Counted from the stretch's first letter, positions 3,273-63,532 are shown. The stretch is 64,000 bases of DNA from an uncultured bacterium (GCA_964417925.1 CAYQJV010000001.1:22192-86191); one strand, 5' to 3'. The notes: a model not told the origin generated them from the letters alone. Translations and numbers: made by a program.

Positions 3273-4595
3273 CTATCCTCCCAATGTAGGTATTTCTTTT
3301 AATTCCTCAAGAATTCTTTCCAAGGTATGAATAAAAATATCTGCCTCCTCCTTTGTATTGTAAAGATAAAGAGAAACCCTGTAGAGTGTTGGACGAAATC
3401 CAGGCCAAATGGAATCAAAATACCTCTCATGTGCATGGTACCATGAGTGTACACAAAATGTTCCCTTTCTTATCATGATATTTGAATATGCATCCAGCTT
3501 TTCATCCACATCTAAATCATCATGGGAAATTCGGGTTACAGGTTTCTTTATAAAGAAGGTAACTATGCCTGTTCTTTTTTCCTCAGATGGACCGATTATC
3601 TCCACTTCAGGAAAGTTATTTTTTATTTTTCTGGATATGTAAATCTGTAAATTCTTCTCATGTTGTTCTATCCTTTCTAATCCTACAGAAAGAAGATACT
3701 CTGCAGCAGCACCTGCACCTATTATTCCTGCATAGTTCTGTAAGCCTGCTTCGTATTTAAATGGAGGTTTAAAGTATTTTGGATGTTTAAAAAGATATGT
3801 ATCTTCAACAGTTCCTCCACCTACTATAAAGGGACGCATGATATTTTCCTCCTCCAGAATCTCCTTTCTACCATAAAGAACACCCATTCCAGTAGGCCCT
3901 CCCATTTTGTGGATTGAAAAGGCTAAAAAATCAATGCCCAGGTCTTGAACATCTACCTTCTTATGAGGAACGCTCTGCGCTCCGTCTACTAAAACAAAAG
4001 CCTGAGGATTGTTTTTTTTGATTACCTCCACTATCTCTTTTATAGTCGCATCAGAAATTTCTGCGCCATCAAGATTTGAAATCTGAGGAAAAGCAAATAA
4101 TCTTATCCTTTTGCCTTCCTCTGCTACCAGTTTTTTTAAATTTTTTATATCAAAGGTATTATCCTCAGCTGACTTCACCACAAGATGCTTTTTTATAATC
4201 CCCCTTGCCTCCAATTCCTGCCAAGGGCATAAGTTTGAATTATGTTCTTTATCAGTGGTCACTACTATATCTTCCTTATCCCATCTAATACTTTGAGCTA
4301 TAATGTTTATCGCCTCTGTAGCATTTTTAGTAAAAATTATTTCCTCGGGAAACCTTGCATTTATCAACTTTCTAATACTTTCTCTGGCCTTATTTACCTC
4401 TTCGTCAACCTTTTTTGCAAACCAGTGATGGCTTCTTTCCCCACACGCAGGATAATGATAATAGTAATCATTCATTACCTCTATCACTTGCCTTGGTTTC
4501 AAAGTCATACAAGCGTTGTCAAAATATATTGGGGGTTTACCATTTCTCTCTTGTTTCAAAGCAGGAAAATCTTCTCTACAGTCCGCTAAATCCAT
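3273..4595 (-). CDS. Cysteine desulfurase, class-V aminotransferase (SufS/Csd-like)
   Basis: PLP-lysine motif FSIHKMGGPTGMGVLYG; size and fold-type fit SufS/CsdA family. Confidence 0.8.
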   Translation of the reverse strand: MDLADCREDFPALKQERNGKPPIYFDNACMTLKPRQVIEVMNDYYYHYPACGERSHHWFAKKVDEEVNKARESIRKLINARFPEEIIFTKNATEAINIIAQSIRWDKEDIVVTTDKEHNSNLCPWQELEARGIIKKHLVVKSAEDNTFDIKNLKKLVAEEGKRIRLFAFPQISNLDGAEISDATIKEIVEVIKKNNPQAFVLVDGAQSVPHKKVDVQDLGIDFLAFSIHKMGGPTGMGVLYGRKEILEEENIMRPFIVGGGTVEDTYLFKHPKYFKPPFKYEAGLQNYAGIIGAGAAAEYLLSVGLERIEQHEKNLQIYISRKIKNNFPEVEIIGPSEEKRTGIVTFFIKKPVTRISHDDLDVDEKLDAYSNIMIRKGTFCVHSWYHAHERYFDSIWPGFRPTLYRVSLYLYNTKEEADIFIHTLERILEELKEIPTLGG

Positions 4596-4607
4596 TCTTC
4601 CTCCTTT

Positions 4608-5261
4608 TTATTCACTATATACTTTTATATCATCTATTCTATAGTAATCATCTGGACCAGATACAAAACCGATCCATCCTTCTTTCTGAATACTCAAAGG
4701 ATCCTCAGTAGATCCTATACAGGTTCCATCTAAGATAACAACAATAGAATCGGAAATAACGGTTATCCTTAAATCATGCCATTCCTTATCCGAAACAGTA
4801 AAAGGGATTTCTGCATCGAAAAGTATTGCTTCAACAGGGCCTGCATAGTTGTCTATCCTTTTTATACTCAACCTATCCGTATGCGAAATTTCTACCAAAT
4901 ATCCTTGAACTTCATTGCATCTTAATCCTATTCTTATATTGCCCTGTGTGGAAAATTCAAATCTCGCTTTTAGTACCAAGGTAAAATCCTGAAAATTTTT
5001 ATTTAAATAAAGAAGCGCAGGATACACCTCTTCACTTACTCCTGGAGGTGTAATTTCTAAAACTTTAGATTGCTCCTGTACGATGAAATCAAAGCTATCT
5101 GTATAAAGACCATTCCAACCTATCTTCCATTCTTCTGTCTGAAAGGTGAATCTTCCTTCTTTATATGTCTCAAAATCTTCTTCATACAGTAAACCGCTGG
5201 GAGGTTCTTCACATCCAACAACTATTAAAAGAAACCATAACATTATACACAACCTTTTCAT
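4608..5261 (-). CDS. Hypothetical lipoprotein (concanavalin/LamG-like fold guess)
   Basis: Signal peptide ending LIVVGC (lipobox-like). No recognised catalytic motif. Confidence 0.4.
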   Translation of the reverse strand: MKRLCIMLWFLLIVVGCEEPPSGLLYEEDFETYKEGRFTFQTEEWKIGWNGLYTDSFDFIVQEQSKVLEITPPGVSEEVYPALLYLNKNFQDFTLVLKARFEFSTQGNIRIGLRCNEVQGYLVEISHTDRLSIKRIDNYAGPVEAILFDAEIPFTVSDKEWHDLRITVISDSIVVILDGTCIGSTEDPLSIQKEGWIGFVSGPDDYYRIDDIKVYSE

Positions 5262-5353: not shown

Positions 5354-7360
5354 GTGTTTATGAAAAAATTGATATTACTAATTCCTTTTTTTATTTTTGC
5401 AAATTCTTTTACATTTAACCCTGAAGAACCTATCCAAGGACAAATATTCTCTGTTTCTTTTATCCCTGAATTTATAGAACCTACAGCCTTAAAAGGAATA
5501 TTTGTTGTAGAAAAAAAGGATACCACAGAAGTGAAATTATTAACACCTTTCATAAAAAATGAAAGGGTGGAGTTTAAAATAAAAATTCCCAAGGATGCAG
5601 AACTTCTTGAGTTTAAATTTGAAGATAACAATGGAAATGCTATTGACGATAGTGGTACTTACTTTGTTAAAGTAATAACAGATACTCTTTCTAAGCCAGT
5701 ATGGAATACCTATTACAGGTGGGCGAGAACCTATCTTAGATTTACAAAATACGATATTGAAAAGGTAAAAAATCTTCTAAAAGCAGAAATAAATTTTCAC
5801 CCCTCTAACTGGTTTGCAACAGATCTACTATGGCAGATTGAAATCAAACAAGACTCCACAAAACTTCCATATGTACGATACTTAGTGGATAGTTTGCTTC
5901 ATGAGGCAAAGGATTCAATAGAAATGCTTTATTTTGTGATTTTAAAAGCATCGGCAGATTATCTTAGATGGCCTGAACTTGCAGACAGCATGCTTACATT
6001 ATGTGCAGAGAAATATCCTGCAAGTAAGTATTGGCTTAACTCCTCCATTGTAAAACCTATTATTCAATATCTCCATGAAGTACCTCAAAGAGAAAAGAAG
6101 TTTGAAGAAAACATCTTTCCTATGTTAAAAGGAGATGGTAAAGAGTCTGCATACTACATTCTTTTTGTACTCTCTTTAATGAATCTTGATAAGGAAAAAG
6201 CAGAAATAATTGCCAAAACATACACAAGGGAATTCCCCAATTCAAAATATGCTCCTGCAATGCTTTTAGTATTCACAAATTATGCCTATCCTACAAGAGA
6301 TTCTTCCTGGCTTGAAGAAGTTGAAAAAATCTACACAAAGTACCCAGAAAATGAACAAGTAGTGTACAGTCTTGCAAGCTATTATAGAGAAATTAATGAA
6401 GAGAAAGCCTATAAGTTTTATAAAAAACTTCTTGAAATAAGAAGAACTCCTTATTATATCAAAGAGTTTATCCGATTTCTTGCAGATAAAAAAAGATACA
6501 GAAAAGAGTTTGAGAAATTGATAGATGAATTGGAAGATTCACTTAATATAGATTTTTACAGAAAGAAACTGTGGTGGTTGAATTTTGAAGAAAGGAAGAG
6601 AGAACAAATCAAAGATTATGCTGATATATACTGCATAAAAGCAATAGCAGAGTCTTCCAGGAAAAATTATGAAAAAGCAAAGGAACTCATTTACAAAGCA
6701 GATAGTATGTTAAAAGCCATCCATGTTTATGATAAATCGGTATTCTATTGCATGAAAAAAGTAGCAGAAAAAACCAAGGATATTGAAATGGAAAAAAGAG
6801 CCTTACTTGGAATCCTTTTTGAAGAAAGAACTAATAAAGGGATAATTACACGATTAAAAGAAATCTACAAAAAAGAGCATAACATTACAGAAGAATTTGA
6901 CAACTTCCTTGACAAAAAGATAAAGGAATTTCTCTTGGACTACAGATTACACCAACCCGCGCCTATTTTCTCTACTAAGGATATTAACGGTGAAACAATA
7001 GATCTATCCAAACTAAAGGGTAAAATAGTGGTTATAAATTTTTGGGCTACCTGGTGTGGTCCTTGCAGAAGAGAAATACCGGATCTAAACAGCCTTGTGG
7101 AAAGATTTAAAAATGACTCTGAAGTAGTTTTCCTTGCAATTAGTGGAGAAGAAAAGAATAAAATAGTTAAGTTTATAGAGAAAAATCCATTTAATTACAG
7201 ATTAATATACGATGCGGATAATATTTTAAAAATGTATTCTATACAAAGTATACCAACTCATATAATTATAGATAAAAAAGGGTACATACAGTTTAAAATT
7301 GTGGGGGCCACTCCTGGAATTGAGGAGATGCTGGAAGACTGGATAAAAGCACTAAAATAG
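5354..7360 (+). CDS. Secreted TPR-repeat protein with C-terminal TlpA/ResA-like thioredoxin domain
   Basis: N-terminal signal peptide MFMKKLILLIPFFIFANS. Long helical repeat region. C-terminal WATWCGPCRREIP (WCxxC thioredoxin motif). SD-like AAAGGAGGTG precedes the ATG. Confidence 0.65.
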   Translation: MFMKKLILLIPFFIFANSFTFNPEEPIQGQIFSVSFIPEFIEPTALKGIFVVEKKDTTEVKLLTPFIKNERVEFKIKIPKDAELLEFKFEDNNGNAIDDSGTYFVKVITDTLSKPVWNTYYRWARTYLRFTKYDIEKVKNLLKAEINFHPSNWFATDLLWQIEIKQDSTKLPYVRYLVDSLLHEAKDSIEMLYFVILKASADYLRWPELADSMLTLCAEKYPASKYWLNSSIVKPIIQYLHEVPQREKKFEENIFPMLKGDGKESAYYILFVLSLMNLDKEKAEIIAKTYTREFPNSKYAPAMLLVFTNYAYPTRDSSWLEEVEKIYTKYPENEQVVYSLASYYREINEEKAYKFYKKLLEIRRTPYYIKEFIRFLADKKRYRKEFEKLIDELEDSLNIDFYRKKLWWLNFEERKREQIKDYADIYCIKAIAESSRKNYEKAKELIYKADSMLKAIHVYDKSVFYCMKKVAEKTKDIEMEKRALLGILFEERTNKGIITRLKEIYKKEHNITEEFDNFLDKKIKEFLLDYRLHQPAPIFSTKDINGETIDLSKLKGKIVVINFWATWCGPCRREIPDLNSLVERFKNDSEVVFLAISGEEKNKIVKFIEKNPFNYRLIYDADNILKMYSIQSIPTHIIIDKKGYIQFKIVGATPGIEEMLEDWIKALK

Positions 7361-51413: not shown

Positions 51414-51431
51414 TGTAACATTTATGTTACA
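51414..51431. promoter_or_regulatory. UAS-1: perfect 18-bp palindrome TGTAACATTTATGTTACA (predicted enhancer-binding-protein site)
   Basis: Inverted repeat TGTAACA-N4-TGTTACA with C-rich 5' flank ccctcaaaaag. Confidence 0.6.
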
Positions 51432-51486
51432 TTTAAATACAGTCTAAGCCTCATAATTACAGATACATACAAAAACCCTTCAAAAG

Positions 51487-51504
51487 TGTAACATTTGTGT
51501 TACA
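51487..51504. promoter_or_regulatory. UAS-2: palindrome TGTAACATTTGTGTTACA (one central substitution)
   Basis: Same half-sites. Centre is 73 bp from UAS-1. Confidence 0.6.
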
Positions 51505-51558
51505 TTCAAAGGCAATTTAAGTAATGTAGTTACAAAGCATACAAATACATTTAAAAAC

Positions 51559-51576
51559 TGTAACATTTATGTTACA
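51559..51576. promoter_or_regulatory. UAS-3: palindrome TGTAACATTTATGTTACA
   Basis: Centre is 72 bp from UAS-2 and about 80 bp upstream of the -24 element. Confidence 0.6.
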
Positions 51577-51646: not shown

Positions 51647-51662
51647 TGGCATGTTTTTCGCT
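51647..51662 (+). promoter_or_regulatory. Predicted sigma-54 promoter (TGGCAT-N5-TCGC; -24 GG / -12 GC)
   Basis: GG and GC are at consensus spacing. The 29-bp block aatctttggcatgtttttcgctatataat is identical to the block at 63289-63317. Confidence 0.6.
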
Positions 51663-51711: not shown

Positions 51712-51739
51712 TTGACAAAAGAATAAAAAAATATAAAAT
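51712..51739 (+). promoter_or_regulatory. Sigma-70-like promoter (TTGACA-N16-TAAAAT) inside the sigma-54 5'UTR, upstream of A1
   Basis: TTGACA at 51712-17, TATAAAAT at 51732-39. SD AGGAAG. The same element recurs at 54809-36 before A2. Confidence 0.45.
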
Positions 51740-51752
51740 TAGGAAGTGTAAA

Positions 51753-52163
51753 ATGAGAGGAGTAATAAAAATATTGGTTTTAGGTATGGTGGTGATGGTT
51801 ATAGCCCAGCCTTCCTATGATGAGAGGTGGGAAGGAGAGGCAGAAGGCACAGTAGTGGTGGATGGAGATACAATTGAGCCATGGGCTCACTGGACTGCCT
51901 GGGTTGAATATGATTATGTGCCTGGTAAGGATACTATTTGGGGAGTATGGCAGGATACGGAGACAGATGCATATGGAAATATATATGGTCATAGAAATGA
52001 GTCTGATGGTTCCGTTTCTGGAACATGGGATTGTGCTAATTATAATGTCTCTGGAGGATGGTCCGGAACCGCCACTGGTGGCGTAGGTAGTAAAGGCTCA
52101 GGAAAGTGGTGGATAAATGGGGAAGATAGTACAGGATGGTGGGAAGGTGAAAGAAAGGAGTAA
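51753..52163 (+). CDS. Small secreted Trp/Asp/Gly-rich protein A1 (136 aa, unknown family)
   Basis: Signal peptide MRGVIKILVLGMVVMVIAQP. Mature part is rich in W, D, G, E (WEGEAEG, GTWDC, WWINGEDSTGWWEGE). First 64 residues are identical to A2. Confidence 0.7.
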   Translation: MRGVIKILVLGMVVMVIAQPSYDERWEGEAEGTVVVDGDTIEPWAHWTAWVEYDYVPGKDTIWGVWQDTETDAYGNIYGHRNESDGSVSGTWDCANYNVSGGWSGTATGGVGSKGSGKWWINGEDSTGWWEGERKE

Positions 52164-52168
52164 AAATA

Positions 52169-52206
52169 AAGAGGGGGAGAGTTAAAAGGCTCTCTCCCTC
52201 TTTTTA
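52169..52206 (+). terminator. Intrinsic terminator/attenuator between A1 and B1
   Basis: AAGAGGGGGAGAG-ttaaaagg-CTCTCTCCCTCTT (12-13 bp stem, one G·U) followed by TTTTT. Confidence 0.6.
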
Positions 52207-52242
52207 AGGAGGGAATATGATGATGTTTTTACTTTTTTTTCA

Positions 52243-54795
52243 ATGATTATAAAAGATGATTTCCTTATATCTAAGGATAATCCAGTGCCATCTTCAAAAT
52301 CAAAGGTCTATGGGAAAGGTAGCAAAAAGGGAATCACAATTGTATGGCAAGATGAAAGGCTTGGAGGTGCATTTATAAAAGGAGATTATGCAGAAATTTT
52401 TTTCCAGAGTTTTGATTCCTTGAGGATGAAAATAGGAGGTAATAGAAGACTCGACATTACCCCTGAATGGAGGGTAAGAGTAGTGGGTGGTATAGGATAC
52501 TTTGATAAGGATGTTTCATTTCTCTGGAATACGGGAGATGGATTGTATTTTTGTAAGTATTCTAATAAAGGGGAACTTAAAATAAAAAGAAAAAGGATAA
52601 TCAGTGATGAAGAGTTTTATGGAAACTTGCGTCCTGATAAACCTGTTGGTTATTCAACTAATGAGATAAATAAAGGATTGGTATGCTTTACTGTGAGTTG
52701 TAAAAATGAAGGAGATAGAGTTTATGCTCTCTGTATCAATTCATGTGGTGAAGTTGTTCTTCCCATATTTACTGTAGATAGTATGCTTCCCGGAACCCCT
52801 TATTTCTGGAATGCAAAAGGTGCTATTTCAGATAGGGCATTTGGAGTTATTTATTGGGAAGGTGGGGTTGAGTATCGGATTAAGATATATACTCTTGATG
52901 GAAAATTTATTGATAAAATAATTTTGGGAAAGGGAGAGGGAACTCCCTATATTGAGATGGTAATGGATACCATTTATGTTGTGTGGTGTGAGTATCCTGA
53001 GATGAGCGTGTGGCTTGAGAAGTATGTTTTGAGAGAAGGTGGGGTTTCAAGGGAGTTTAAGGAGATGTTAAGCAAGGATGCATTGTGGTCTTCAAACATG
53101 CAGGTTGCTTTTGAATGGTGGGATAGGGATGAAGGACCTGTGGAAATTCCTTCTCTGGTTGTGATGACCGCATGGCATGACTGGGATGAAAAGAAGATAA
53201 AGTGCAGGGTATATTCAGGAGCAACTGGTGGTGAAATTGCAGGTGGTTCTTTTTCTCCCTCCGTTTCTGATACTGCAACTCCTGACTTTTCCCTTTTCTA
53301 TGGTGCAGGTAGGTTTCACATAGCATATGTTGACGACAGTAACCGGGTGATTGATGTTGCAACATATCTTACTCCTGATACCGAGCTTGTGTTTGCAGGT
53401 CCTCAGGTTGTAAGTGATGACAGCTGTGGTGAAGGATGGAGTGATGCAAGGCTTGCGGTTAACAGTAATGGAGATTTTGCAATTCTTTACTGGTCACCGG
53501 AAGGAAAGGCATTTGTAAAGTTTTTTGACAGAGATGGAAATCAGATATCCAAAGAGATAGATATTTCTACTCTCTTCACAACAAGATGTCCTTCAATGAT
53601 AGCTCCAATGATAGCAATGGATAATGAAAGAAATTTAATGGTAATAGCTTTGGAGGATTGGCTGGAGACTCTTCCGCCTATAAGGATAGAGTTTTATGGA
53701 TTGATTGTTAAGCCTTCAGGAGAAATAAAGAGGTTCAATATAGGGAGGTATCCTGAGGAGCTATACATAGGCGATAGTTATCTCACCTGTAATTCAAAAG
53801 GGGATTTCCTTTTCCTGTGGGATGAATTTCCATTTGGTTCTGAGGAAGAGAGAAATGTTATAAAGGGCAGGTTTTTTGATGCAAATGGAAGGCCAAAGAC
53901 AGATGTTTTTACTCTCAAGTTTCCTCTTGGCCCTATACACCCCACTGGAGCTGATGTTTTTGAGAATGGAGGGGCGGTTGTGGCGGCTGCAATGTCAAAT
54001 GCTGCACGCTCATGGGCAGTTGTGATAGACAGCACCGGTAATCCTTTGACAGAGTTAATAGAGTTTATACGCACCTATCCCGTTATTGCCTGTGATGGGA
54101 GGAATAGATGGGTGATGGCGGGATTAAATGTAAAGCCAAACTACATGGTTTTTGATAGAAAGGGCAATGTGATAAAGGATTTGCAGGTGATAGATGCATA
54201 TACATTTCCTTGGCCTTCTTTCTTTGGTCCTCGCCAGTTGTGGTGTGATATGGATACATCAGGGAGGTTTATAATCTACTGGACAGATTTTACTGAGGAT
54301 GCAAATCCTGATGTAAGGGCACAGATATTTTCAAGGGATGGTGACCCGGTATCAGAGATATTTGAGGTTCATAATCCTGATGCATTTCCTTATGAGTATC
54401 AGCTTTCTACCTGGCAGGGACTTGGAGTGACATCGGATAGGATTTATTTTATGTGGCTTGACAATCGCAGGATAAAGGGTTGGGACATATATGCAAAGGT
54501 AACGGACTGGGAGTATCCAACAGGAATTAAAGAAAAGAGAGAAAGTAAAAACTTAGATATAGAGTATTTGGGACCCCATATTTTAATAAGGTTTTCCCTT
54601 TCTTTTCCTCAGAATTTATCTATCAAACTCTACGATGTTTCAGGAAGAGTGGTAAAAAGCATCTTTTTAAAGGCAAAGAAAGGAGAAAATACAATTGAGA
54701 TAGAAAAAAATTTCCCTCCTGGAGTGTATTTTTTGAGAATAGAAGGGAAGGAAAAAGAATATAGCACTAAGATTCTCATTGTAAAAGGGAAATGA
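52243..54795 (+). CDS. Large beta-propeller-repeat protein B1 with T9SS C-terminal sorting domain. The 5' end is frame-disrupted relative to its SD-positioned ATG at 52217
   Basis: C-terminus LSIKLYDVSGRVVKSIFL…PGVYFLRIEG…KILIVKGK matches the Por_Secre_tail pattern. Internal repeats GDF-hhh-W…(I/V)xGRFFDxNGxP. SD AAGGAGGG at 52207-14 serves the ATG at 52217, whose frame stops at 52244 unless the T8 run (52233-40) gains one T. Confidence 0.7.
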   Translation: MIIKDDFLISKDNPVPSSKSKVYGKGSKKGITIVWQDERLGGAFIKGDYAEIFFQSFDSLRMKIGGNRRLDITPEWRVRVVGGIGYFDKDVSFLWNTGDGLYFCKYSNKGELKIKRKRIISDEEFYGNLRPDKPVGYSTNEINKGLVCFTVSCKNEGDRVYALCINSCGEVVLPIFTVDSMLPGTPYFWNAKGAISDRAFGVIYWEGGVEYRIKIYTLDGKFIDKIILGKGEGTPYIEMVMDTIYVVWCEYPEMSVWLEKYVLREGGVSREFKEMLSKDALWSSNMQVAFEWWDRDEGPVEIPSLVVMTAWHDWDEKKIKCRVYSGATGGEIAGGSFSPSVSDTATPDFSLFYGAGRFHIAYVDDSNRVIDVATYLTPDTELVFAGPQVVSDDSCGEGWSDARLAVNSNGDFAILYWSPEGKAFVKFFDRDGNQISKEIDISTLFTTRCPSMIAPMIAMDNERNLMVIALEDWLETLPPIRIEFYGLIVKPSGEIKRFNIGRYPEELYIGDSYLTCNSKGDFLFLWDEFPFGSEEERNVIKGRFFDANGRPKTDVFTLKFPLGPIHPTGADVFENGGAVVAAAMSNAARSWAVVIDSTGNPLTELIEFIRTYPVIACDGRNRWVMAGLNVKPNYMVFDRKGNVIKDLQVIDAYTFPWPSFFGPRQLWCDMDTSGRFIIYWTDFTEDANPDVRAQIFSRDGDPVSEIFEVHNPDAFPYEYQLSTWQGLGVTSDRIYFMWLDNRRIKGWDIYAKVTDWEYPTGIKEKRESKNLDIEYLGPHILIRFSLSFPQNLSIKLYDVSGRVVKSIFLKAKKGENTIEIEKNFPPGVYFLRIEGKEKEYSTKILIVKGK

Positions 54796-54808
54796 AAAGG
54801 AAGAAAAA

Positions 54809-54836
54809 TTGACAAAAAATAAAAAAAATATAAAAT
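54809..54836 (+). promoter_or_regulatory. Sigma-70-like promoter (TTGACA-N16-TAAAAT) for A2-B2. No UAS or sigma-54 element in this copy
   Basis: TTGACA at 54809-14, TATAAAAT at 54829-36. Duplicate of the 51712-39 element. Confidence 0.45.
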
Positions 54837-54840
54837 AGGG

Positions 54841-55254
54841 GTGGTGAGAAGAGTAATAAAAATATTGGTTTTAGGTATGGTGGTAATGGTTATAGCCCAG
54901 CCTTCCTATGATGAGAGGTGGGAAGGAGAGGCAGAAGGCACAGTAGTGGTGGATGGAGATACAATTGAGCCATGGGCTCACTGGACTGCCTGGGTTGAAT
55001 ATGATTATGTGCCTGGTAAGGATACTATCTGGGGTATATGGTGGGATGATGAGGGAGATACAGGGAGGATATATGGACACCGAGATGAAGCAAACGACTC
55101 TGTTTTTGGAACATGGGATTGTATCAACTGTGATGTATCTGGGGAATGGGAGGGAAAGGCAAATTATCCTACGACAGATAATGCACAAGGAGAGTGGTGG
55201 GTAACAAGTGGTGGAACTGGGGATGGCACATGGAGTGGGCATAGAGAAGAATAA
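54841..55254 (+). CDS. Small secreted Trp-rich protein A2 (paralog of A1; GTG start, or GTG at 54844)
   Basis: Identical signal peptide and N-terminal half to A1. C-terminal half diverged (IWWDDEGDTGRIYGHRDE…GEWWVTSGGTGDGTWSGH). Confidence 0.7.
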   Translation: MVRRVIKILVLGMVVMVIAQPSYDERWEGEAEGTVVVDGDTIEPWAHWTAWVEYDYVPGKDTIWGIWWDDEGDTGRIYGHRDEANDSVFGTWDCINCDVSGEWEGKANYPTTDNAQGEWWVTSGGTGDGTWSGHREE

Positions 55255-55260
55255 AAACAT

Positions 55261-55282
55261 GGGAGCCGGAAATCCGGCTCCC
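55261..55282 (+). other. GC-rich hairpin without U-tract between A2 and B2 (stability/processing element rather than terminator)
   Basis: GGGAGCCGG-aaat-CCGGCTCCC followed by ATAAAAAGGAGG (SD of B2). Confidence 0.45.
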
Positions 55283-55300
55283 ATAAAAAGGAGGTAAAAA

Positions 55301-57898
55301 ATGATATTTTTATTGTTTTTAATAGTTATAAAAGATGATTTCCTGGTATCTAAGGATAATCCATGCCATTCTTTTAAGTGTCAGGTTTTTGGAAAAGGAG
55401 AGGTGGATGGTTATACCATTGTATGGAGAGATGGGAGAACCGGAACAATTAATTTACCGAGTTTTTATGAGGAAATTTTCTTTCAGTGTTTTGATTCAAA
55501 TAGAGTTAAAATTGGGGATAACACAAGACTTGGGACATCTTCTGAGTGGAAGACAAGATATCTCGGGGGCATAGGATACTTCAAAGATGCAGTATCATTT
55601 ATATGGAATGAAGGATCCGGGATGGGGCAGGCAGATATTCAGGATACCATGGGAACCATTTACTTCTGTAAGTATGATAACAATAGGAATATGGTGATAA
55701 AACCTAAAAAACTCATTGATCATAATGATATTCGTATTTATCCATTTTATCCAGTACATTATTCTACCAATGGATGTAACAGAGGACTGGTATGTTTTGG
55801 GGAGATTGGAGAAAAGAAAACAAACTTTTATGCCTTGGTTATTGATTCTTGTGGAGAAATTCTTCTTCCTTTATTTGTTGTGGATACGGTTTCTGGGTCC
55901 CATCCAATTGTGAGGGGAGCAATATCAGACAGGTATTTTGCAATATTTTATTCCACCACTTTCAATCCTGCTATTTCCAGGATGAAGGTCTATTCAATTG
56001 ATGGAAAGGAAATTGATAGGATAGTTTTTGGAGAAAGCTTCAAGGCTTCTGCTATTAAAGTATTTCTTGACACAATTTATGTTGTTTGGAGTCCGTATTT
56101 TTATGATAGGGGTGAAGAGCTATGGTTGGAGAAGTATGTGGTTAAGGATGATGGTGTTGAGAGGGTATTTCAGGAGATTTTGATGAATAGATATCCAGCA
56201 AATATGCAGGTTGCTTTTGGATGGTGGGATAGGGATGAAGGACCTGTGGAGGTTCCTTCTCTGGTTGTGATGATCGCGTGGCATGACTGGGATGAGAAGA
56301 AGATAAAGTGCAGGGTGTATTCAGGAGCAACTGGTGGTGAAATTGCAGGTGGTTCTTTTTCTCCCTCTGTTTCTGATACTGCAACTCCTGATTTTTCTCT
56401 TTTCTATGGTGCAGGAAGGTTTCACATAGCATATGTTGATGACAGTAACCGGGTGATTGATGTTGCAACATATCTTACTCCTGATACCGAGCTTGTGTTT
56501 GCAGGTCCTCAGGTTGTAAGTGATGATACCTGTGGCAGGGGATGGAGTGATGCAAGGCTTGCAGTAAACAGCAATGGAGACTTTGCAATTTTTTACTGGT
56601 GCTATTATTATGACAGTCTGCGTGCCTTTGTGAAATTTTTTGATCAAAATGGAGATGAACTTTCAAAAGAGATTGAGGTTCCTCTTCGTTTCACAAGGTT
56701 TACCAATGTAACGACGGCTATGGATGATAGGAGAAATTTGATGATAATACATGCTCCTGAGGTTCTGGAAAAAAATGAGAATGGTCGTCCCACAAGGATA
56801 AGGTTTTATGGGGTTATTGTTAATCCCTCTGGAGAGGTCAAAAAGTTTACCATAGGGGAGTATCCACCTGATGAGTTTTACATGTCCTGGCATAGTTATG
56901 TTGCATGTAATTCTAAAGGGGATTTTCTTATACTCTGGTGTCATTTTCCTGGAGGGGATGGTCCTGAAAATGTTATAAGGGGCAGGTTTTTTGATGCAAA
57001 TGGAAGACCGAAAACAGATGTTTTTACTCTCAAGTTTCCCATAGGTCCCATAATGCCCACTGGGGCTGTTGTTTTTGAGGATGGAGGGGCGGTTGTAGGA
57101 GCTGCACTGTCAAATGCTGCACGCTCATGGGCGGTTGTGATAGACAGCATCGGTAATCCTTTAACAGAATTAATAGAGTTTATACGCACTTATCCTGTTA
57201 TTGCCTGTGATGGGAGGGATAGATGGGTGATGGCAGGATTAGATGTAAAGCCAAACTGCATGGTTTTTGATAGAAAAGGAAATGTGATAAGGGATTTGCA
57301 GGTGATAGATGCATATACATTTGCCTGGCCATCCCCAATTTTCCCTCAGCAGTTATGGTGTGATATGGATACATCAGGGAGGTTTATAATTTACTGGACA
57401 GATTTTACCGAGGATGCAAATCCGGATGTCAGGGCACAGATATTTTCAAGGGATGGTGACCCGGTATCAGAGATATTTGAGGTTCATAATCCTGATGCAT
57501 TTCCTTATGAGTATCAGCTTTCTACCTGGCAGGGACTTGGAGTGACATCGGATAGGATTTATTTTATGTGGCTTGACAATCGCAGGATAAAGGGCTGGGA
57601 CATATATGCAAAGGTAACGGACTGGGAGTATCCAACAGGAATTAAAGAAAAGAGAGAAAGTAAAAACTTAGATATAGAGTATTTGGGACCCCATATTTTA
57701 ATAAGGTTTTCCCTTTCTTTTCCTCAGAATTTATCTATCAAACTCTACGATGTTTCAGGAAGAGTGGTAAAAAGCATCTTTTTAAAGGCAAGGGAAGGAG
57801 AAAACAGGGTTGAAATAAAAAAGGATTTTCCCCAGGGAGTGTATTTTTTGAGGATAGAAAAAGGGAAAGTTTTACACAAAAAAATAATAATATTGTAA
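55301..57898 (+). CDS. Large beta-propeller-repeat protein B2 with T9SS C-terminal sorting domain (paralog of B1)
   Basis: SD AAGGAGGT 6 nt before the ATG. Short hydrophobic N-terminus MIFLLFLIVI. C-terminal 310 aa are almost identical to B1, including the CTD. Confidence 0.75.
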   Translation: MIFLLFLIVIKDDFLVSKDNPCHSFKCQVFGKGEVDGYTIVWRDGRTGTINLPSFYEEIFFQCFDSNRVKIGDNTRLGTSSEWKTRYLGGIGYFKDAVSFIWNEGSGMGQADIQDTMGTIYFCKYDNNRNMVIKPKKLIDHNDIRIYPFYPVHYSTNGCNRGLVCFGEIGEKKTNFYALVIDSCGEILLPLFVVDTVSGSHPIVRGAISDRYFAIFYSTTFNPAISRMKVYSIDGKEIDRIVFGESFKASAIKVFLDTIYVVWSPYFYDRGEELWLEKYVVKDDGVERVFQEILMNRYPANMQVAFGWWDRDEGPVEVPSLVVMIAWHDWDEKKIKCRVYSGATGGEIAGGSFSPSVSDTATPDFSLFYGAGRFHIAYVDDSNRVIDVATYLTPDTELVFAGPQVVSDDTCGRGWSDARLAVNSNGDFAIFYWCYYYDSLRAFVKFFDQNGDELSKEIEVPLRFTRFTNVTTAMDDRRNLMIIHAPEVLEKNENGRPTRIRFYGVIVNPSGEVKKFTIGEYPPDEFYMSWHSYVACNSKGDFLILWCHFPGGDGPENVIRGRFFDANGRPKTDVFTLKFPIGPIMPTGAVVFEDGGAVVGAALSNAARSWAVVIDSIGNPLTELIEFIRTYPVIACDGRDRWVMAGLDVKPNCMVFDRKGNVIRDLQVIDAYTFAWPSPIFPQQLWCDMDTSGRFIIYWTDFTEDANPDVRAQIFSRDGDPVSEIFEVHNPDAFPYEYQLSTWQGLGVTSDRIYFMWLDNRRIKGWDIYAKVTDWEYPTGIKEKRESKNLDIEYLGPHILIRFSLSFPQNLSIKLYDVSGRVVKSIFLKAREGENRVEIKKDFPQGVYFLRIEKGKVLHKKIIIL

Positions 57899-58014: not shown

Positions 58015-58332
58015 ATGGTTTCATTACCGAAAAGTACTGTATACGGGGATGGTGTTAAAATCAACTCTTTACATGCAATACAGCTTCTTGACATGGAAAT
58101 TACATCTGTTAAAAGAAAAAGACGTGTAAAAAGTTCTTTGAGCACAATGTTCTTTATCAACCTCCTCTACAAAAAAGAATGCAATAAAATTACTGTCCAG
58201 ATGGATCCTGTAATAACTCACAAGAGTTATGACTACATAAATCATTGCTATAGAAACAGCAATAATAAAAAAGATAGTTTCCAAAAATTAAAGAAAATTT
58301 ACAACGAAGTAATAAACTTAACTAACAGGTGA
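58015..58332 (+). CDS. Small hypothetical protein (105 aa) translationally coupled to the kinase-EBP gene
   Basis: Strong SD then ATG at 58015 (the ORF track's 57988 start lacks an SD). Stop TGA overlaps the downstream GTG start (GTGA at 58329-32). No recognisable motif. Confidence 0.45.
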   Translation: MVSLPKSTVYGDGVKINSLHAIQLLDMEITSVKRKRRVKSSLSTMFFINLLYKKECNKITVQMDPVITHKSYDYINHCYRNSNNKKDSFQKLKKIYNEVINLTNR

Positions 58333-61300
58333 GCAGGTATAAAATAGTAGAAAAGATAGGGGAGGGAAATTACACCGTAGTATATAGAGCATATGACATC
58401 CTTTCTCAGAAGGAAGTGGCATTAAAAACTCTAAAGAACAAAGGAATTGATCCCGTGATTCTTAAAAGAGAGTATGTATTTTTAAAAAAATGCTCCCATC
58501 CTTATATAGTAAAGGTATATGAAGCAGGGTACTTAAAAGACACTCCTTATTTTACAATGGAGTACATAAAAGGAGAGGATATAAAGCAGTATCTAAAAAA
58601 GAAACGAAACGAGCAAAATTTCTGGACAATTTTTTCCACGCTCTTTTTAAAAATAGTTGCAGGAGTATCCCACTTTCACTTTAAAGGAATAATACATGGC
58701 GATCTCAAACCAAACAATATTCTTGTAGATGAACAGGACAATGTGAAAATAATAGATTTTGGTTTTGCCTTATTAAAAGGAGAAAAACCAGAGGGAACTA
58801 CAGTAGTATACACTGCTCCTGAAATCCTTAAAGGAAACCTTGATTATAGAGCAGACATTTATGCTATAGGGATGATAATGTACGAAATTATAGAAGGTAA
58901 AGATTTATTTACTCAACTCACCCCTGTAAATATTGTAAAAGAAAAGTTAAAATTTATTCCTTCTTTTTCAAAACCTATACCTTCTGAACTTAAAAATCTT
59001 GTGAAAAATATGCTTTCTCCAGAACCTTTCTTCAGACCGGATGCAAAAGAAATATACAGCACACTTTCAAAACTATCTGCAGAAAAAATAGAGATACAAT
59101 CCCAAGAGGAAATGACCACAATGCCAGTGGTAGGAAGAGAAGAACTAATAGATACTGCTTTAAAAGAGGGTAACAAAATAATATTCTATGGAGACCATGG
59201 TTATGGAAAATCAACTTTATTAAAAGAAATATCTTTTAGGGCTTGGCTTAAGAAAAAAAGGGTATTTGAAATCAATAAAGATAAAGAATACCTGCTTCTT
59301 GAATATTTAAAAACTCACTATAAAGTTAAAGCAACATCCAGGGAACATCTGTTTGCAGATATTGTATCCTCCCTTGAGAAAGAGTACGACATCTTCATAT
59401 TTGATGACCTACATCTATACTCTGAAGATGATATTGAGTTTGCAAGGTATCTTTATCTTTCCACAAAGAAGAATGTAATATTCTCAGCATTACCTTTAGA
59501 GTCCTTAAAAAAGAAGTTTGAAGAACCAGGCAGAATAGCGATAAAAAATATTCCTTCATTATCACCTAAAGAAATAAAAACTCTTGTATATATTCTTTTC
59601 CCAACCCTATCTCAGAAAGAGGAACTTACAGAAGAGCTCTATAGAATAACAAAAGGAATACCTCTGCTTTTAAAAAGCATTATTGAGATATTTTTAAAAG
59701 AAAAAATCCTTAAAAAAGAAGAGGATAAATTTATTTTTAATAGAGAGAAAATCAAAGGGTTAGAACTACCGAAAACTGTAAAAGAATTTGTAAAGAATTC
59801 ATTCAAAGAATTAAATGAAGATGAAAAAAACTTCTTACTTGCTGTCCACCTATTAAAAGACTTTGCATCCTTATCCAACATCTATCAAATGGTACAACTA
59901 AAAGAGGATAAGATATATTCCATAGCAGAAAGTTTAAAAATAAAAGAACTTATAAAAATAATCCAAAAAAACAACACAATTATCTACACACTTTCAACTG
60001 GAATTTATATCCCCTTTATAAAAAAACTAAAAAGTTATAAAGACCTTTTGGAAAAAAGTATAAAAATAATTGAAAAGGAAAACAGCACCAAAAAAATATA
60101 TCTTCTTGCAGAATACAACCATATTCTCGGTAAAAAAGAAAAGGCAGTTGATTATCTCTACACTGCAGTAAATACGGCAAGAAAAACCTCCCTCCTTTGT
60201 GAAGCAAAGAAATTTATAGAAATACTCATCCAGAACTATCCTATAGAAGACATACCAAACCCTTGCAAATTTTGTATTGTAGCCGGAGACATCTATCTAC
60301 TGCTTCATGAATTAAAAAAGGCTCAGACATTTTTCTCAATATCATTTTCCTTCTGCCCTCAAGAAAGAAAAAGTGATATTCATCACAGGATTGCTCAAAC
60401 AATGTTTTATCAGGGAAATATCAAAGATGCAAAACTGGAAACAATAAAGGGATTAAAATATGCAAAAGATAAACATGAATTATTGAATTTTCTATCATGG
60501 CTTTACATCTTTGATGGTGAAAAGCAAAGAGCAGAAAGAATCTTAAACCATGTAATAGCACATACAAATAACAAAGAGATACTTTCAAATGCATACTATA
60601 ACCTTGCAATACTTTACAAAAAATATAACCAATTTATTAAATGTGCTACGGTGCTTGGGAAAAGCATAAAATATCTAAAGGAAAAAGACATCTATGGTTA
60701 TGCGTTAAGACTTGAAATTGCTTGTGAAATGCTACTTCAGAAGGGATTTTTTAGAAATGCAGAAAGAATACTTTTAAAAATAAAAAATATTTGGGGAAAA
60801 ATTAAAAACTTAAATAAATATACATCAACTTTAATAAACATGGGAAGAATAAAAAGATTTGAAAATCCCAAAAAAGCACTTGAATACTTCCATCAAGCAG
60901 AAATCATGAGTCTCAAAATAAAAGATTATGAACTTTTTGCAAGTGCCCTTCTTAACTCTGCATTCTTATTTGAAACATACGGAAGAACTGAACAGGCTCT
61001 TGAAAGCATAGGTAAACTTCTTACATACGAACAAAAAATTTCAGAAGAGAGATTTTGTAAAGGAGTTTTTTATTATACAAAGTATCTACTTTTAACGAAT
61101 CAGATAGAAAAAGCAGAAGAATTTCTTAAAACCATCAAAAGGAAAGACTCTTCTTGGTGCCTTTTATCACAGACATTGGTTCTTTTTGAAAAAAATGATG
61201 ATAAAAGATTCAGAAAGGAGATGGTAGAAATACTATTAAGGGAAAATACCGAAGAAGAAGTCTCTGAAGCTCTTAATATTCTTTTTGAATATCATTACAA

Positions 61301-63149
61301 TAAAAATGATTTGGAAAGATGTAAAACCATCCTTGAAAGGATTAAAAAGATATCATATGCGAAAAAAAATCCTTTTAAAGAAGTTGAGATAATGTTAAAA
61401 ACAGCAATCCTTTTAAAAGATAAAAAACTACTTGAAGAAACAATAAAAAGAGCAGAAAGAATTCACTATTTCAATGCAAAACCCCTTGCCCTATCTATAC
61501 TTGGAAAGATATATTATGAGAAAGGAGATTACTTGAAGGCATATAAACATCTAAAAGAAGCAAGGGAAAATTTTGAGAGAATAGGAATGATAAATACCGC
61601 AGAAAAGATAAAAAAATATGAAGAAAAAGCAAAGGAAAAAAGTATAGAAATCCAAGTACCGGAAAGGAAATACTTAGATACACTTGAAAGAATAAGCGCT
61701 GTGGTAAAGGACTATTTTGGAAAAGATGAGTTTTTCCTTGAACTTTTAAACATTCTGATAGAAGCAACCTCTGCAGAAAGAGGAATGGTCATGATAGGGG
61801 AGAACCAAGAAAATCTATACTGCGTGGGAACTACAAATATAGATGAAGTTACTTATGTCGATGCAACCGCATTTTCAAAGACTGTATTAAAACATGTAAG
61901 AGAAGGTAAAAGAGGGATATATACAGAAGATGCAACAAAAGATCCCAGGTTTAAAGATGCAGAAAGTGTCAAACTAAAAGAGATAAAGTCAATTCTATGC
62001 GTTCCATTAATGGCAAAAGATGAAGTTATAGGAGTTCTCTATCTTGATAGTTCACTCAAAAAAGGACTCTTTACAGAAGAAACTCTAAAATTCATGGAGT
62101 CTGTATCAAATATAATAGGCACATTTGTGTATACCTCTTATACCGCAGAGAAAAAGTTTAAAGAACTTGAAAGGATAAAACTAAAAACTCAAGAAATAGT
62201 AATAGGAAGATCAAGAAAAATAAAAAGGATATTCAAGGAAATCCAACAAATTGCTCAAACAGATTCAAACATCCTCCTTATAGGAGAAACAGGAACAGGT
62301 AAAGGGGTAATTGCACGGTTAATTCATGAAAAGAGCAGGCGGAGCGAATATCTCTTTCAGTATATAAACTGTGGAGCAATTCCCTATGAACTATTTGAAG
62401 CAGAACTATTTGGATACAAAAAAGGAGCCTTCACAGGTGCAAGAGAAACAAGAAAGGGCTTACTTGAAGAGGCTCATAAAGGAACCGTTTTTTTGGATGA
62501 AATAGCAAATATTCCAATATCTGTCCAGGCAAAGTTGCTGGATGTAATAGAGCGAAAAAAAATAAGAAGGCTTGGAGAAAATATAGAAAGGGATATTGAT
62601 GTAAGGTTTATATTTGCAACAAACAGAGATTTAGAACAAGAAATAGAAAAGGAAAAGTTCAGAAATGACCTGTATTACCGAATTTCAACAACTGTTATTG
62701 AAATTCCACCACTAAGAGAAAGAAAAGAAGATATTCCTATATTTGTAGATTTCTTCATAGATAAATTTTCAAAAGAACTTAACAAAAATATAAAGGGAGT
62801 TTCACAAGAAGCCATGGAAATACTATTAAAATACCACTGGCCAGGAAATATAAGAGAGCTTTCCAATGTAATTGAACGGGCTGTAATTATGGCAGATAAA
62901 GAAACCATAGGCAAAAATCACATAGATAGAGGAATAATTGAATCAGTAATACCACCAGCCCCTCTAAAAATTGAAACAGAAAAAGTAAAGAAAGAGATGA
63001 TAATAAAGGCACTTCAACTCCACAAAGGTAACATCAAAAAAACAGCCCAATACCTGCACATAACCCGTCAACACCTCTCCAGGCTTTTAAAAAGATACAA
63101 CATTGACCCAGCCCAGTATAAACACCCCCAAAACCCCCAAAAAGTGTAA
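58329..63149 (+). CDS. Multidomain one-component regulator: Ser/Thr protein kinase + P-loop NTPase + TPR array + GAF + sigma-54 activator AAA+ + Fis-type HTH (1606 aa)
   Basis: Kinase motifs VALKTL, HGDLKPNN (58695-718), DFG, APE. P-loop GDHGYGKST (59190-216). Long TPR-like helical repeats. GAF-like block LLNILIEATSAERGMVMIG…VLYLDS. Sigma-54 AAA+ Walker A GETGTGKG (62283-306), GAFTGA (62424-41), Walker B VFLDEI, WPGNIRELSNVIERA. C-terminal HTH KTAQYLHITRQHLSRLLKRY. Confidence 0.8.
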   Translation: MSRYKIVEKIGEGNYTVVYRAYDILSQKEVALKTLKNKGIDPVILKREYVFLKKCSHPYIVKVYEAGYLKDTPYFTMEYIKGEDIKQYLKKKRNEQNFWTIFSTLFLKIVAGVSHFHFKGIIHGDLKPNNILVDEQDNVKIIDFGFALLKGEKPEGTTVVYTAPEILKGNLDYRADIYAIGMIMYEIIEGKDLFTQLTPVNIVKEKLKFIPSFSKPIPSELKNLVKNMLSPEPFFRPDAKEIYSTLSKLSAEKIEIQSQEEMTTMPVVGREELIDTALKEGNKIIFYGDHGYGKSTLLKEISFRAWLKKKRVFEINKDKEYLLLEYLKTHYKVKATSREHLFADIVSSLEKEYDIFIFDDLHLYSEDDIEFARYLYLSTKKNVIFSALPLESLKKKFEEPGRIAIKNIPSLSPKEIKTLVYILFPTLSQKEELTEELYRITKGIPLLLKSIIEIFLKEKILKKEEDKFIFNREKIKGLELPKTVKEFVKNSFKELNEDEKNFLLAVHLLKDFASLSNIYQMVQLKEDKIYSIAESLKIKELIKIIQKNNTIIYTLSTGIYIPFIKKLKSYKDLLEKSIKIIEKENSTKKIYLLAEYNHILGKKEKAVDYLYTAVNTARKTSLLCEAKKFIEILIQNYPIEDIPNPCKFCIVAGDIYLLLHELKKAQTFFSISFSFCPQERKSDIHHRIAQTMFYQGNIKDAKLETIKGLKYAKDKHELLNFLSWLYIFDGEKQRAERILNHVIAHTNNKEILSNAYYNLAILYKKYNQFIKCATVLGKSIKYLKEKDIYGYALRLEIACEMLLQKGFFRNAERILLKIKNIWGKIKNLNKYTSTLINMGRIKRFENPKKALEYFHQAEIMSLKIKDYELFASALLNSAFLFETYGRTEQALESIGKLLTYEQKISEERFCKGVFYYTKYLLLTNQIEKAEEFLKTIKRKDSSWCLLSQTLVLFEKNDDKRFRKEMVEILLRENTEEEVSEALNILFEYHYNKNDLERCKTILERIKKISYAKKNPFKEVEIMLKTAILLKDKKLLEETIKRAERIHYFNAKPLALSILGKIYYEKGDYLKAYKHLKEARENFERIGMINTAEKIKKYEEKAKEKSIEIQVPERKYLDTLERISAVVKDYFGKDEFFLELLNILIEATSAERGMVMIGENQENLYCVGTTNIDEVTYVDATAFSKTVLKHVREGKRGIYTEDATKDPRFKDAESVKLKEIKSILCVPLMAKDEVIGVLYLDSSLKKGLFTEETLKFMESVSNIIGTFVYTSYTAEKKFKELERIKLKTQEIVIGRSRKIKRIFKEIQQIAQTDSNILLIGETGTGKGVIARLIHEKSRRSEYLFQYINCGAIPYELFEAELFGYKKGAFTGARETRKGLLEEAHKGTVFLDEIANIPISVQAKLLDVIERKKIRRLGENIERDIDVRFIFATNRDLEQEIEKEKFRNDLYYRISTTVIEIPPLRERKEDIPIFVDFFIDKFSKELNKNIKGVSQEAMEILLKYHWPGNIRELSNVIERAVIMADKETIGKNHIDRGIIESVIPPAPLKIETEKVKKEMIIKALQLHKGNIKKTAQYLHITRQHLSRLLKRYNIDPAQYKHPQNPQKV

Positions 63150-63162
63150 CATTTATGTTACA
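63145..63162. promoter_or_regulatory. UAS-4: palindrome TGTAACATTTATGTTACA overlapping the regulator's stop codon
   Basis: TAA stop (63147-49) is inside the left half-site. C-rich flank cccccaaaaag. Confidence 0.6.
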
Positions 63163-63217
63163 TTTTGAGGCGGTCTAAGTTACGTAATTAAGTATATATA
63201 CAAATACCCCCAAAAAG

Positions 63218-63235
63218 TGTAACATTTATGTTACA
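63218..63235. promoter_or_regulatory. UAS-5: palindrome TGTAACATTTATGTTACA
   Basis: Centre is 73 bp from UAS-4 and about 70 bp upstream of the -24 element. Confidence 0.6.
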
Positions 63236-63294
63236 TTTTGAAAAAACCCCAATTTTTAAGTTACGGTGTTTTTTGACTTAATTTTTAAAATCTT

Positions 63295-63310
63295 TGGCAT
63301 GTTTTTCGCT
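63295..63310 (+). promoter_or_regulatory. Predicted sigma-54 promoter (TGGCAT-N5-TCGC), second copy
   Basis: 29-bp block identical to 51641-51669. SD AAGGAGGT and ATG at 63371 lie downstream. Confidence 0.6.
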
Positions 63311-63370
63311 ATATAATTATTAGTGTATGAAAAGGGAAATAAAAAACAAAAAAATAAAAAGGAGGTAAAC

Positions 63371-63532
63371 ATGAAAAAGTTGTTAGCATTGCTTGTTTTT
63401 GTTGGTGGTTTGCTTTTTGCTGATCCGCCTTCCCCTTGTGGTGGACCTGGAGATGATCCTCCTGATCCTACACCACCACCTCCTATTCCTATAGACGTAG
63501 AAAATATTGTTGAGGTGATACCGGGGGAGTAA
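63371..63532 (+). CDS. Small secreted Pro/Asp-rich peptide (53 aa precursor)
   Basis: Strong SD. Signal peptide MKKLLALLVFVGGLLFA. Mature DPPSPCGGPGDDPPDPTPPPPIPIDVENIVEVIPGE. The ORF track's 63323 start lacks an SD and sits at the predicted TSS. Confidence 0.55.
   Translation: MKKLLALLVFVGGLLFADPPSPCGGPGDDPPDPTPPPPIPIDVENIVEVIPGE

Follow-up and report, generated by a model that had tools for sequence, protein, structure and literature searches.

What function do two small, tryptophan (Trp)-rich secreted proteins serve at the head of two gene cassettes in an uncultured bacterium? Herein, we analysed a 64,000-nucleotide stretch of this organism (GCA_964417925.1, CAYQJV010000001.1:22192-86191), the whole of which is called the window below; positions are counted from its first letter, and the genes and regulatory sites described lie on the + strand. 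The genes in question, A1 (51753-52163) and its paralogue A2 (54844-55254), are followed by genes for large proteins, B1 (52243-54795) and B2 (55301-57898), respectively, which end in a type IX secretion system (T9SS) sorting domain. With a probability of roughly 0.45, and judging from sequence and predicted structure, A is a mini-barrel with a Trp core that acts as a binding scaffold for the adjacent T9SS propeller B. It would be made separately, probably in excess, under the control of sigma-54 and a kinase, and would act as an escort or holdase of B or as its regulated modulator.

A1 begins with ATG and encodes a 136-aa precursor, of which 118 aa form the mature protein, a predicted beta-barrel rich in Trp, Gly and acidic residues. 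A2, found as an open reading frame (ORF) and by similarity search, also has 136 aa and starts with GTG in the public annotation (P0010); an alternative GTG at 54841 would give 137 aa. The two proteins are 70% identical (E 7e-64). The first-pass annotation had described them as small secreted proteins rich in Trp, Gly and Asp that head each cassette; both ORFs were recovered, and every motif it quoted is present in the translations. The clean signal peptide was confirmed as well, since both proteins carry a cleavable one, MRGVIKILVLGMVVMVIA, with cleavage before QPS, and the precursor N-terminus reads MR(G/R)VIKILVLGMVVMVIA up to the same site. The single Cys ascribed to each protein is correct for A1 only, as A2 has two (WDC and INC).

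Each mature protein contains 12 Trp (10.2%), compared with 1.2% on average and at most 2.9% in the long ORFs of the window. Gly accounts for 14-17% and Asp plus Glu for 19-23% of the residues, there is no Leu at all, the isoelectric point (pI) is about 4.1, and the C-terminus, GERKE or GHREE, is non-aromatic. The Pfam and NCBIfam scans detected no T9SS tail (Por_Secre_tail) in A1 or A2, and by that criterion A is not a T9SS cargo. That both are real genes is supported by homologues of ~30% identity in other metagenomes, by a ratio of nonsynonymous to synonymous substitution rates (dN/dS) below 1, and by a fold predicted at moderate-to-good confidence. Export of A2 by hitch-hiking on the twin-arginine translocation (Tat) pathway was considered and rejected, because relatives have RG or RE in place of the RR pair, which moreover departs from RRxFLK. 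A palindrome, TGAGCCCATGGCTCA, lies inside both A genes (51875-51889 and 54966-54980) at the EPWAH codons and was flagged on the minus strand in the terminator scan; it most likely arises incidentally from the coding sequence.

Scans of A1 and A2 against Pfam, NCBIfam, PADLOC and PHROGs returned zero matches. With no significant PDB sequence match either, the earlier statement that A carries no assignable motif held. A word-indexed search of 5.8 billion proteins found only three unnamed clusters, at 64-100% identity, and an exhaustive HMMER search of 1.84 billion representatives, with a profile of close A relatives as the query, returned 19 proteins at E<=1e-3. About 15 of the 19 are true homologues, being small (101-226 aa), nearly all equipped with a signal peptide, and alike in their motifs from end to end (E-x-W-x-G, P-W/F-x-x-W, G-x-W-x-D, G-x-[IF]-x-G, G-T-W-(D-C), G-x-W-x-G, G-x-W and a terminal G-x-[RK]). 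The other matches (P0014, P0015, P0017 and P0025) are WD40, low-complexity repeat or propeller-blade repeat proteins that agree at the motif level only.

An alignment of 18 members defines an all-beta domain of about 115-150 aa, in which W47, W66, W92 and glycines are the only invariant columns, W119 is nearly invariant, and no polar residue is conserved throughout. Because only Trp and Gly are invariant, A is better read as a scaffold than as an enzyme; these residues are presumably structural, leaving the surface free to vary. Every full-length member has a signal peptide or a lipobox. In two homologues (L007 and P0027) a lipobox (MLSC) replaces the signal peptidase I site, and these two are probably lipoproteins.

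Close relatives are few. Patterns of close A relatives matched no locus in the GTDB representative genomes, and in the metagenome scan only one near-identical contig, L001 (Ga0190286_1010541); exact look-ups of P0001 and P0002 gave no record. In L001 the near-identical A2 copy (523-560) has a 1-nt deletion in the signal-peptide codons, such that the ATG frame ends after 13 codons, which reflects either an assembly error or a strain-level pseudogene. Another contig, L004 (Logan SRR16002674, 8.3 kb), carries 11 diverged tandem A paralogues of 136-174 aa between 589 and 6896, all with signal peptides; the members at 4161-4661 and 6372-6896 form a Cys-rich subtype.

The first-pass annotation had suggested predicting the structure of A alone. 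AlphaFold2 (AF2), run with an 8-sequence alignment, gave a helix-free, all-beta up-and-down meander of ~10 strand segments with a disordered signal peptide (predicted local distance difference test (pLDDT) 79.4; predicted template modelling score (pTM) 0.72). The predicted strands present W/G/A/I/V/C on one face and E/K/R/S/T/D on the opposite face. This pattern, together with the composition and the non-aromatic C-terminus, argues for a soluble barrel with a Trp-packed core, probably closed and of roughly eight strands according to the meander (DSSP strands) and the fold matches. The best Foldseek match in the PDB was neisserial NHBA, by its C-terminal 8-stranded barrel (6cuj, E 1.7e-3, template modelling (TM) score 0.56; also 5o1r), followed by HphA haemophores (6om5 and 8gmm), TbpB lobes, the designed barrel 6d0t, lipocalins and nitrophorins, all at weak TM scores of 0.5-0.56. 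For the NHBA, HphA and TbpB barrels the TM scores reach no more than 0.52-0.56, with E values of 1.7e-3 or above. The fold class of A is already known.

OmpA, Ail, NspA, OmpW and designed transmembrane barrels also appeared among the Foldseek matches, which could make A an 8-stranded outer-membrane barrel of the OmpX/Ail/OmpA type. These matches have root-mean-square deviations of 7-15 Å, however, and the zero Leu, the 19-23% acidic residues, the pI of 4.1, the soluble strand-face pattern and the absence of an aromatic beta-signal led us to reject this assignment as extremely improbable.

The likeness to the NHBA (GNA2132)/TbpB/fHbp/HphA barrels (TbpB_B_D, PF01298), which are cargo of Slam, the type XI secretion system (T11SS), is closer. 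They are small, soluble up-and-down barrels of ~110-120 residues, as A is predicted to be, and NHBA aligns weakly but in register with A over the G-x-W/F-x-G strands and the terminal G-x-F/W-G-x-K/R. Some A homologues are moreover probable lipoproteins. In contrast, the NHBA and TbpB barrels form the C-terminal domain of a larger lipoprotein whereas A stands alone, and A comes from a different phylum (WOR-3) and a different secretion context, with a T9SS neighbour. PF01298 had zero matches among 18 A-family members in a Pfam scan at E<=1. The search of the family profile against PDB sequences produced no significant match for A: NHBA ranked second (E 0.67, not significant; another at 7.4), in register over the last four strands. 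DUF560/Slam was absent from the precomputed Pfam lists of the fetched loci, no dedicated search having been run, and the neighbours of A across loci are T9SS-tailed proteins, sigma-54 regulators and an extracytoplasmic function (ECF) sigma factor.

TbpB- and HphA-type barrel domains capture ligands in Proteobacteria. A might accordingly be a secreted or surface-tethered hemophore- or lectin-like protein that captures a small molecule or glycan and passes it to B or works beside B. Such a role would fit the top structural matches, the in-register NHBA alignment, the lipoboxes of the two homologues, the many aromatics and acidic surface, and the expansion to 11 diverging tandem copies, as would suit a ligand-diversified binder. 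It sits poorly with the lack of any significant sequence relation and with the fact that HphA binds haem through an N-terminal handle or clamp that A lacks. The core seems to be occupied by the invariant Trp and Gly, which probably leave no ligand cavity; no His, Tyr or Cys ligand residue is conserved; and A, lacking a T9SS tail, has no evident route across the outer membrane. On balance, we regard ligand capture as unlikely.

Two other likenesses were considered. Calycins (lipocalins, nitrophorins and avidin-like proteins) and de novo 8-stranded barrels share with A a meander barrel of similar size and Gly kinks beside core aromatics (6d0t, 4xmc and 4es7), at a TM score of only ~0.5. A differs from calycins in lacking the flanking helix and the lipocalin motifs, and its core is apparently filled with Trp instead of forming a ligand cup; its model has no lipocalin-type C-terminal helix, and the Pfam lipocalin families did not match it at E<=1. 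MORN repeats and the blade repeat of B resemble A in the motif G-x-W-x-D ... G-x-I-Y-G-x-R, and the A profile matched FAP207 (E 0.098) and long blade-repeat or WD40 proteins (P0014, P0017 and P0025) weakly. As read from the sequences, the resemblance echoes composition or motif and does not reflect homology. We also rejected the idea that blades of the B-type propeller gave rise to A, since hhalign of the two profiles gave a probability of 0.35%.

B1, of 850 aa, is multi-propeller-like and carries a T9SS type A C-terminal sorting domain, and B2 (865 aa) is its mosaic paralogue, 72% identical and likewise ending in a T9SS C-terminal domain. Both match TIGR04183 (3.5e-13 and 1.3e-10) and PF18962, and this tail is the sole database match of B; no enzyme domain was detectable, and B1 gave no significant match among the PDB sequences. 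The AF2 model of B1, built with only three homologues, has a low pLDDT of 59.5. In it, four-strand sheets recur in an all-beta structure that resembles tandem propellers (EMC1, LRP6 and sortilin); the model was used only for the label "tandem propeller-like".

The N-terminus of B1 is irregular. Read from 52243, its frame has no signal peptide; just upstream (52217-52245) stands ATGATGATG...T8...CAATGA, which translates as MMMFLLFFQ*. One more T in the run at 52232-52239, nine in place of eight, would make B1 begin at 52217 as MMMFLLFFSMIIKDDFL, like the short hydrophobic N-termini of B2 (MIFLLFLIVIKDDFL) and P0031 (MLIFLVSMIIKNDFL). The T8 run may reflect an error in sequencing the homopolymer, a frameshift as in a pseudogene, or slipped-strand phase variation. 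In the B proteins of this clade (window 55301-55345; L029 3799-3850) the hydrophobic N-terminal segment spans only ~10-13 residues, has no positively charged n-region and is followed by K-(D/E/N)-D-F-L, while the B homologue of L002 has a full-length signal peptide (MKRRWFCVINSILMVIAAPLIGAVLKNDFLL).

The GTDB representative genomes were scanned with the B alignment, yielding 18 loci. Candidate division WOR-3 (NCBI phylum Caldifarciminota) is named in the titles of ten and Candidatus Cloacimonadota in that of one; the remaining seven are called just "uncultured bacterium" or "bacterium". Profiles of A and B were then applied by hmmsearch to the six-frame ORFs of these loci and of the contigs with distant A homologues, where the A profile matched at E 1e-12 to 1e-48. 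A B-like gene is immediately preceded by an A-like ORF in the window (twice) and in L001, L002/L003, L006, L007, L010, L018, L025 and L029/L030. The pair of L002/L003 is only 31% (A) and 26% (B) identical, and L010 shows the order B-end, A, B-start. In L028, A precedes another propeller-like protein, whose C-terminal region, resembling the T9SS C-terminal domain, is close to those of the L025 and L029 B proteins. Altogether, the gene after A encodes a T9SS-tailed propeller protein in 10 of the 11 informative loci (B-like in nine), which are independent and long enough to judge, at identities of about 30% for A and about 25% for B. A lack of synteny between A and B in relatives had been named beforehand as the finding that would count against the idea; the adjacency is instead kept in distant loci.

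Only some members of the B family have an A beside them. In L011, L012 and L020-L023, B is preceded instead by a conserved ~1075-aa protein with the motif RVLALRVEF.ED...LTTGNGKMDL.GFL....GLYYDPPHTKKYFE, which is a second, different conserved partner arrangement.

The junction between A and the next gene was folded in 11 cases (window A1 and A2, L002, L006, L007, L010, L018, L024, L025, L028 and L029), along with two spacers of the L004 array. Every folded A stop codon is followed by a strong hairpin with a stem of 9 to 16 uninterrupted base pairs. The hairpin after A1 (52168-52208; -30.2 kcal/mol, z -4.24) has a 16-bp stem followed by UUUUU and would act as a terminator or attenuator before B1; that after A2 (55259-55284; -22.9 kcal/mol, z -5.5) has an 11-bp stem and no + strand U-tract, the U5 tail being confined to A1. 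The real terminator that the first-pass annotation had placed between A1 and B1 is thus borne out as a terminator-like structure. Its further claim, that A is probably made in excess over B, gained support, as a hairpin that should raise A above B occurs in all 11 folded A-B junctions. Since this strong hairpin directly follows the A stop codon, A is probably made separately from B and in excess over it. The order of A, hairpin and B is kept in 10 of 11 loci, including two without sigma-54 motifs (L010 and L018), which argues for a functional link between A and B.

Sigma-70-like promoters (TTGACA-16-TAAAAT) lie upstream of A1 (51712-51739; 11/12 consensus positions) and A2 (54809-54836), duplicated with the cassette (repeat D19). 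In eight loci (L006, L007, L010, L018, L024, L025, L028 and L029), the hairpin is abutted by TTGACA-16/17-TAnnAT and then by the ribosome-binding site of B, as found by eye with no shuffle control. The arrangement suggests that B has a sigma-70-type promoter of its own there. In the window, the space before B1 and B2 is too short for such a promoter, and B would be read through from A there and transcribed on its own elsewhere. In L010 (790-975) and L018 (9295-9400), a sigma-70-like promoter (TTGACA...TAAAAT or TATAAT) together with a ~130-nt leader stands before A in place of a sigma-54 promoter. Rfam found no RNA family in the window and six loci, and these leaders match no described riboswitch or RNA family.

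Upstream of A1, a candidate sigma-54 type promoter, TGGCATGTTTTTCGCT, is located at 51647-51662 with the GG/GC spacing of the -24/-12 consensus. The motif has two matches in the window against 0.1 expected, the second being an identical 16-mer at 63295. The palindrome TGTAACA-N4-TGTTACA (repeat family D10) occurs five times in the window against 0 expected. Three copies, 72-73 bp apart (51414, 51487 and 51559; together 51414-51576), are putative upstream activator sites 90-235 bp upstream of the promoter, and two (63145 and 63218) lie just after the stop codon of a regulator gene (58329-63149). This gene encodes a 1606-aa candidate activator of the A1 promoter with the architecture Ser/Thr kinase, AAA, TPR, GAF, sigma-54 activator (Sigma54_activat) and HTH_8. 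Sigma-54 promoter motifs precede A in three lineages, namely the window, L002 (TGGCACGATAATTGCA) and L006 (TGGCACGGGAATTGCT), the latter two of the type TGGCAC-N5-TTGC. In L006, GGACA-N4-TGTCC palindromes lie upstream of the promoter; in L002, a regulator of the same architecture adjoins the A-B pair and a second, short sigma-54 activator is directly upstream of A. These arrangements suggest that the adjacent kinase/GAF/sigma-54 activator probably controls the A1 promoter, and that the A transcript would be inducible, separately terminated and probably abundant.

To compare the two cassettes, the paralogues were aligned codon by codon. Between A1 and A2, the synonymous divergence (dS) is about 0-0.17 over residues 1-66 and 0.8-2.2 over residues 67-136, with dN/dS of 0.15-0.8. 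The mosaic recurs between B1 and B2, where near-identical blocks (284-383, 576-625 and 676-825) lie among old, saturated ones. Such low-dS and high-dS blocks point to recent gene conversion between old paralogous cassettes, not to selection for a docking half. The earlier reading of the constant N-terminal half of A as a docking part and the variable C-terminal half as an interaction part was therefore abandoned; across the family, conservation extends over all strands (W47, W66, W92, W119 and the glycines). The old divergent block is contiguous, running from the C-terminal half of A through the N-terminal third of B, which is compatible with co-adapted A/B pairs and no proof of them.

Several observations weigh against a partnership of A with B. 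The 11 tandem A paralogues of L004 have no B within 8 kb, showing that A can expand alone, and ten B-family loci (L011-L016 and L020-L023) carry no A-like gene, so that B needs no A in general. If B has its own promoter, A and B need not be co-expressed, which speaks against A as an obligate folding chaperone. The unbroken divergent block may simply mark the stopping points of conversion tracts, and barrel closure, strand count and Trp orientation in A were derived not from coordinates but from fold matches and DSSP strands. The first three of these points would suit an independent function of A, for example as a member of a sigma-54 regulon, an envelope or stress protein, that stands beside B through shared regulation or common descent, as would A's own promoter and terminator and the occurrence of the same regulatory module before an unrelated small ORF at 63371. 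The A-hairpin-B order in 10 of 11 informative loci is nevertheless hard to explain without a functional link, and we consider an independent role quite unlikely.

Small exported beta-barrel inhibitors encoded beside secreted enzymes are known, namely AprI/Inh, MliC/PliC and staphostatins. A resembles them in size, in its signal peptide or lipobox, in its place beside the gene of an exported protein, and in the logic of a protective or modulating partner made in excess. By analogy, A could be a periplasmic inhibitor or immunity-type protein that neutralises B or neighbouring T9SS cargo before export. The lipoprotein variants, the fast-evolving surface on a conserved core, and an M6-like HEWGH peptidase in the gene cluster of L028 would agree with this idea. 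However, the known barrel inhibitors are not among the top 50 fold matches of A, and B has no recognisable catalytic domain, its low-confidence model resembling non-enzymatic tandem propellers. An inhibitor thus seems rather improbable, and no result specifically favoured an antigen or immunity role of A.

For the preferred reading, a scaffold that binds B, the following course is proposed. After Sec export and cleavage of the signal peptide, the 118-aa mature A would fold as a soluble up-and-down barrel, its core filled by invariant Trp flanked by Gly (G-x-W-x-G strands) and its outside acidic and fast-evolving. The gene for this binding scaffold forms a conserved two-gene unit with that for the T9SS-exported multi-propeller B. 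Transcription of A would start at its own promoter, driven in the window by the adjacent activator via the TGTAACA-N4-TGTTACA sites, and would end or be attenuated at the hairpin after the A stop codon, such that A is made apart from B and in excess. In the periplasm or at the outer membrane, A would then serve as a stoichiometric, lineage-matched partner of B, either as a pre-export escort or holdase or as a modulator or inhibitor.

T9SS cargo is generally thought to need only a Sec signal and the C-terminal tail, and we know of no dedicated partner proteins for individual T9SS cargoes; a literature search for such partners returned nothing relevant among the titles and abstracts listed, and no paper on WOR-3 together with T9SS was found. 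Whether A represents the first cargo-specific partner of type IX substrates, periplasmic or lipid-anchored, with cognate co-diverging A/B pairs and a kinase-coupled sigma-54 switch, is a bolder proposal that we think has only a small chance of being right. If true, A would control when or in what state a propeller reaches the WOR-3 cell surface.

As far as our database searches show, the family is new, as are the Trp/Gly signature that marks it and, in WOR-3, the conserved succession of A, hairpin and T9SS-propeller gene with its probable sigma-54 control. The A family is a new domain family, a predicted Trp-core mini-barrel that neither Pfam nor NCBIfam contains. Barrel gene, hairpin, propeller-cargo gene and probable sigma-54 control make up a conserved unit that offers a concrete, cheaply testable protein pair in the uncultured candidate division WOR-3. 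Even as a generic binding scaffold, A would provide a useful annotation for about 20 orphan clusters.

The regulator gene is bordered on its far side by a second regulatory module (63145-63310), which consists of the two palindromes, TGTAACATTTATGTTACA, 73 bp apart and the promoter TGGCATGTTTTTCGCT at 63295. With a palindrome-promoter module on both sides, the regulator gene would be flanked by two putative target operons. The small ORF downstream of the second module (ATG at 63371; region 63145-63532) encodes a signal peptide followed by a Pro-rich peptide (ADPPSPCGGPGDDPPDPTPPPPIPIDVENIVEVIPGE).

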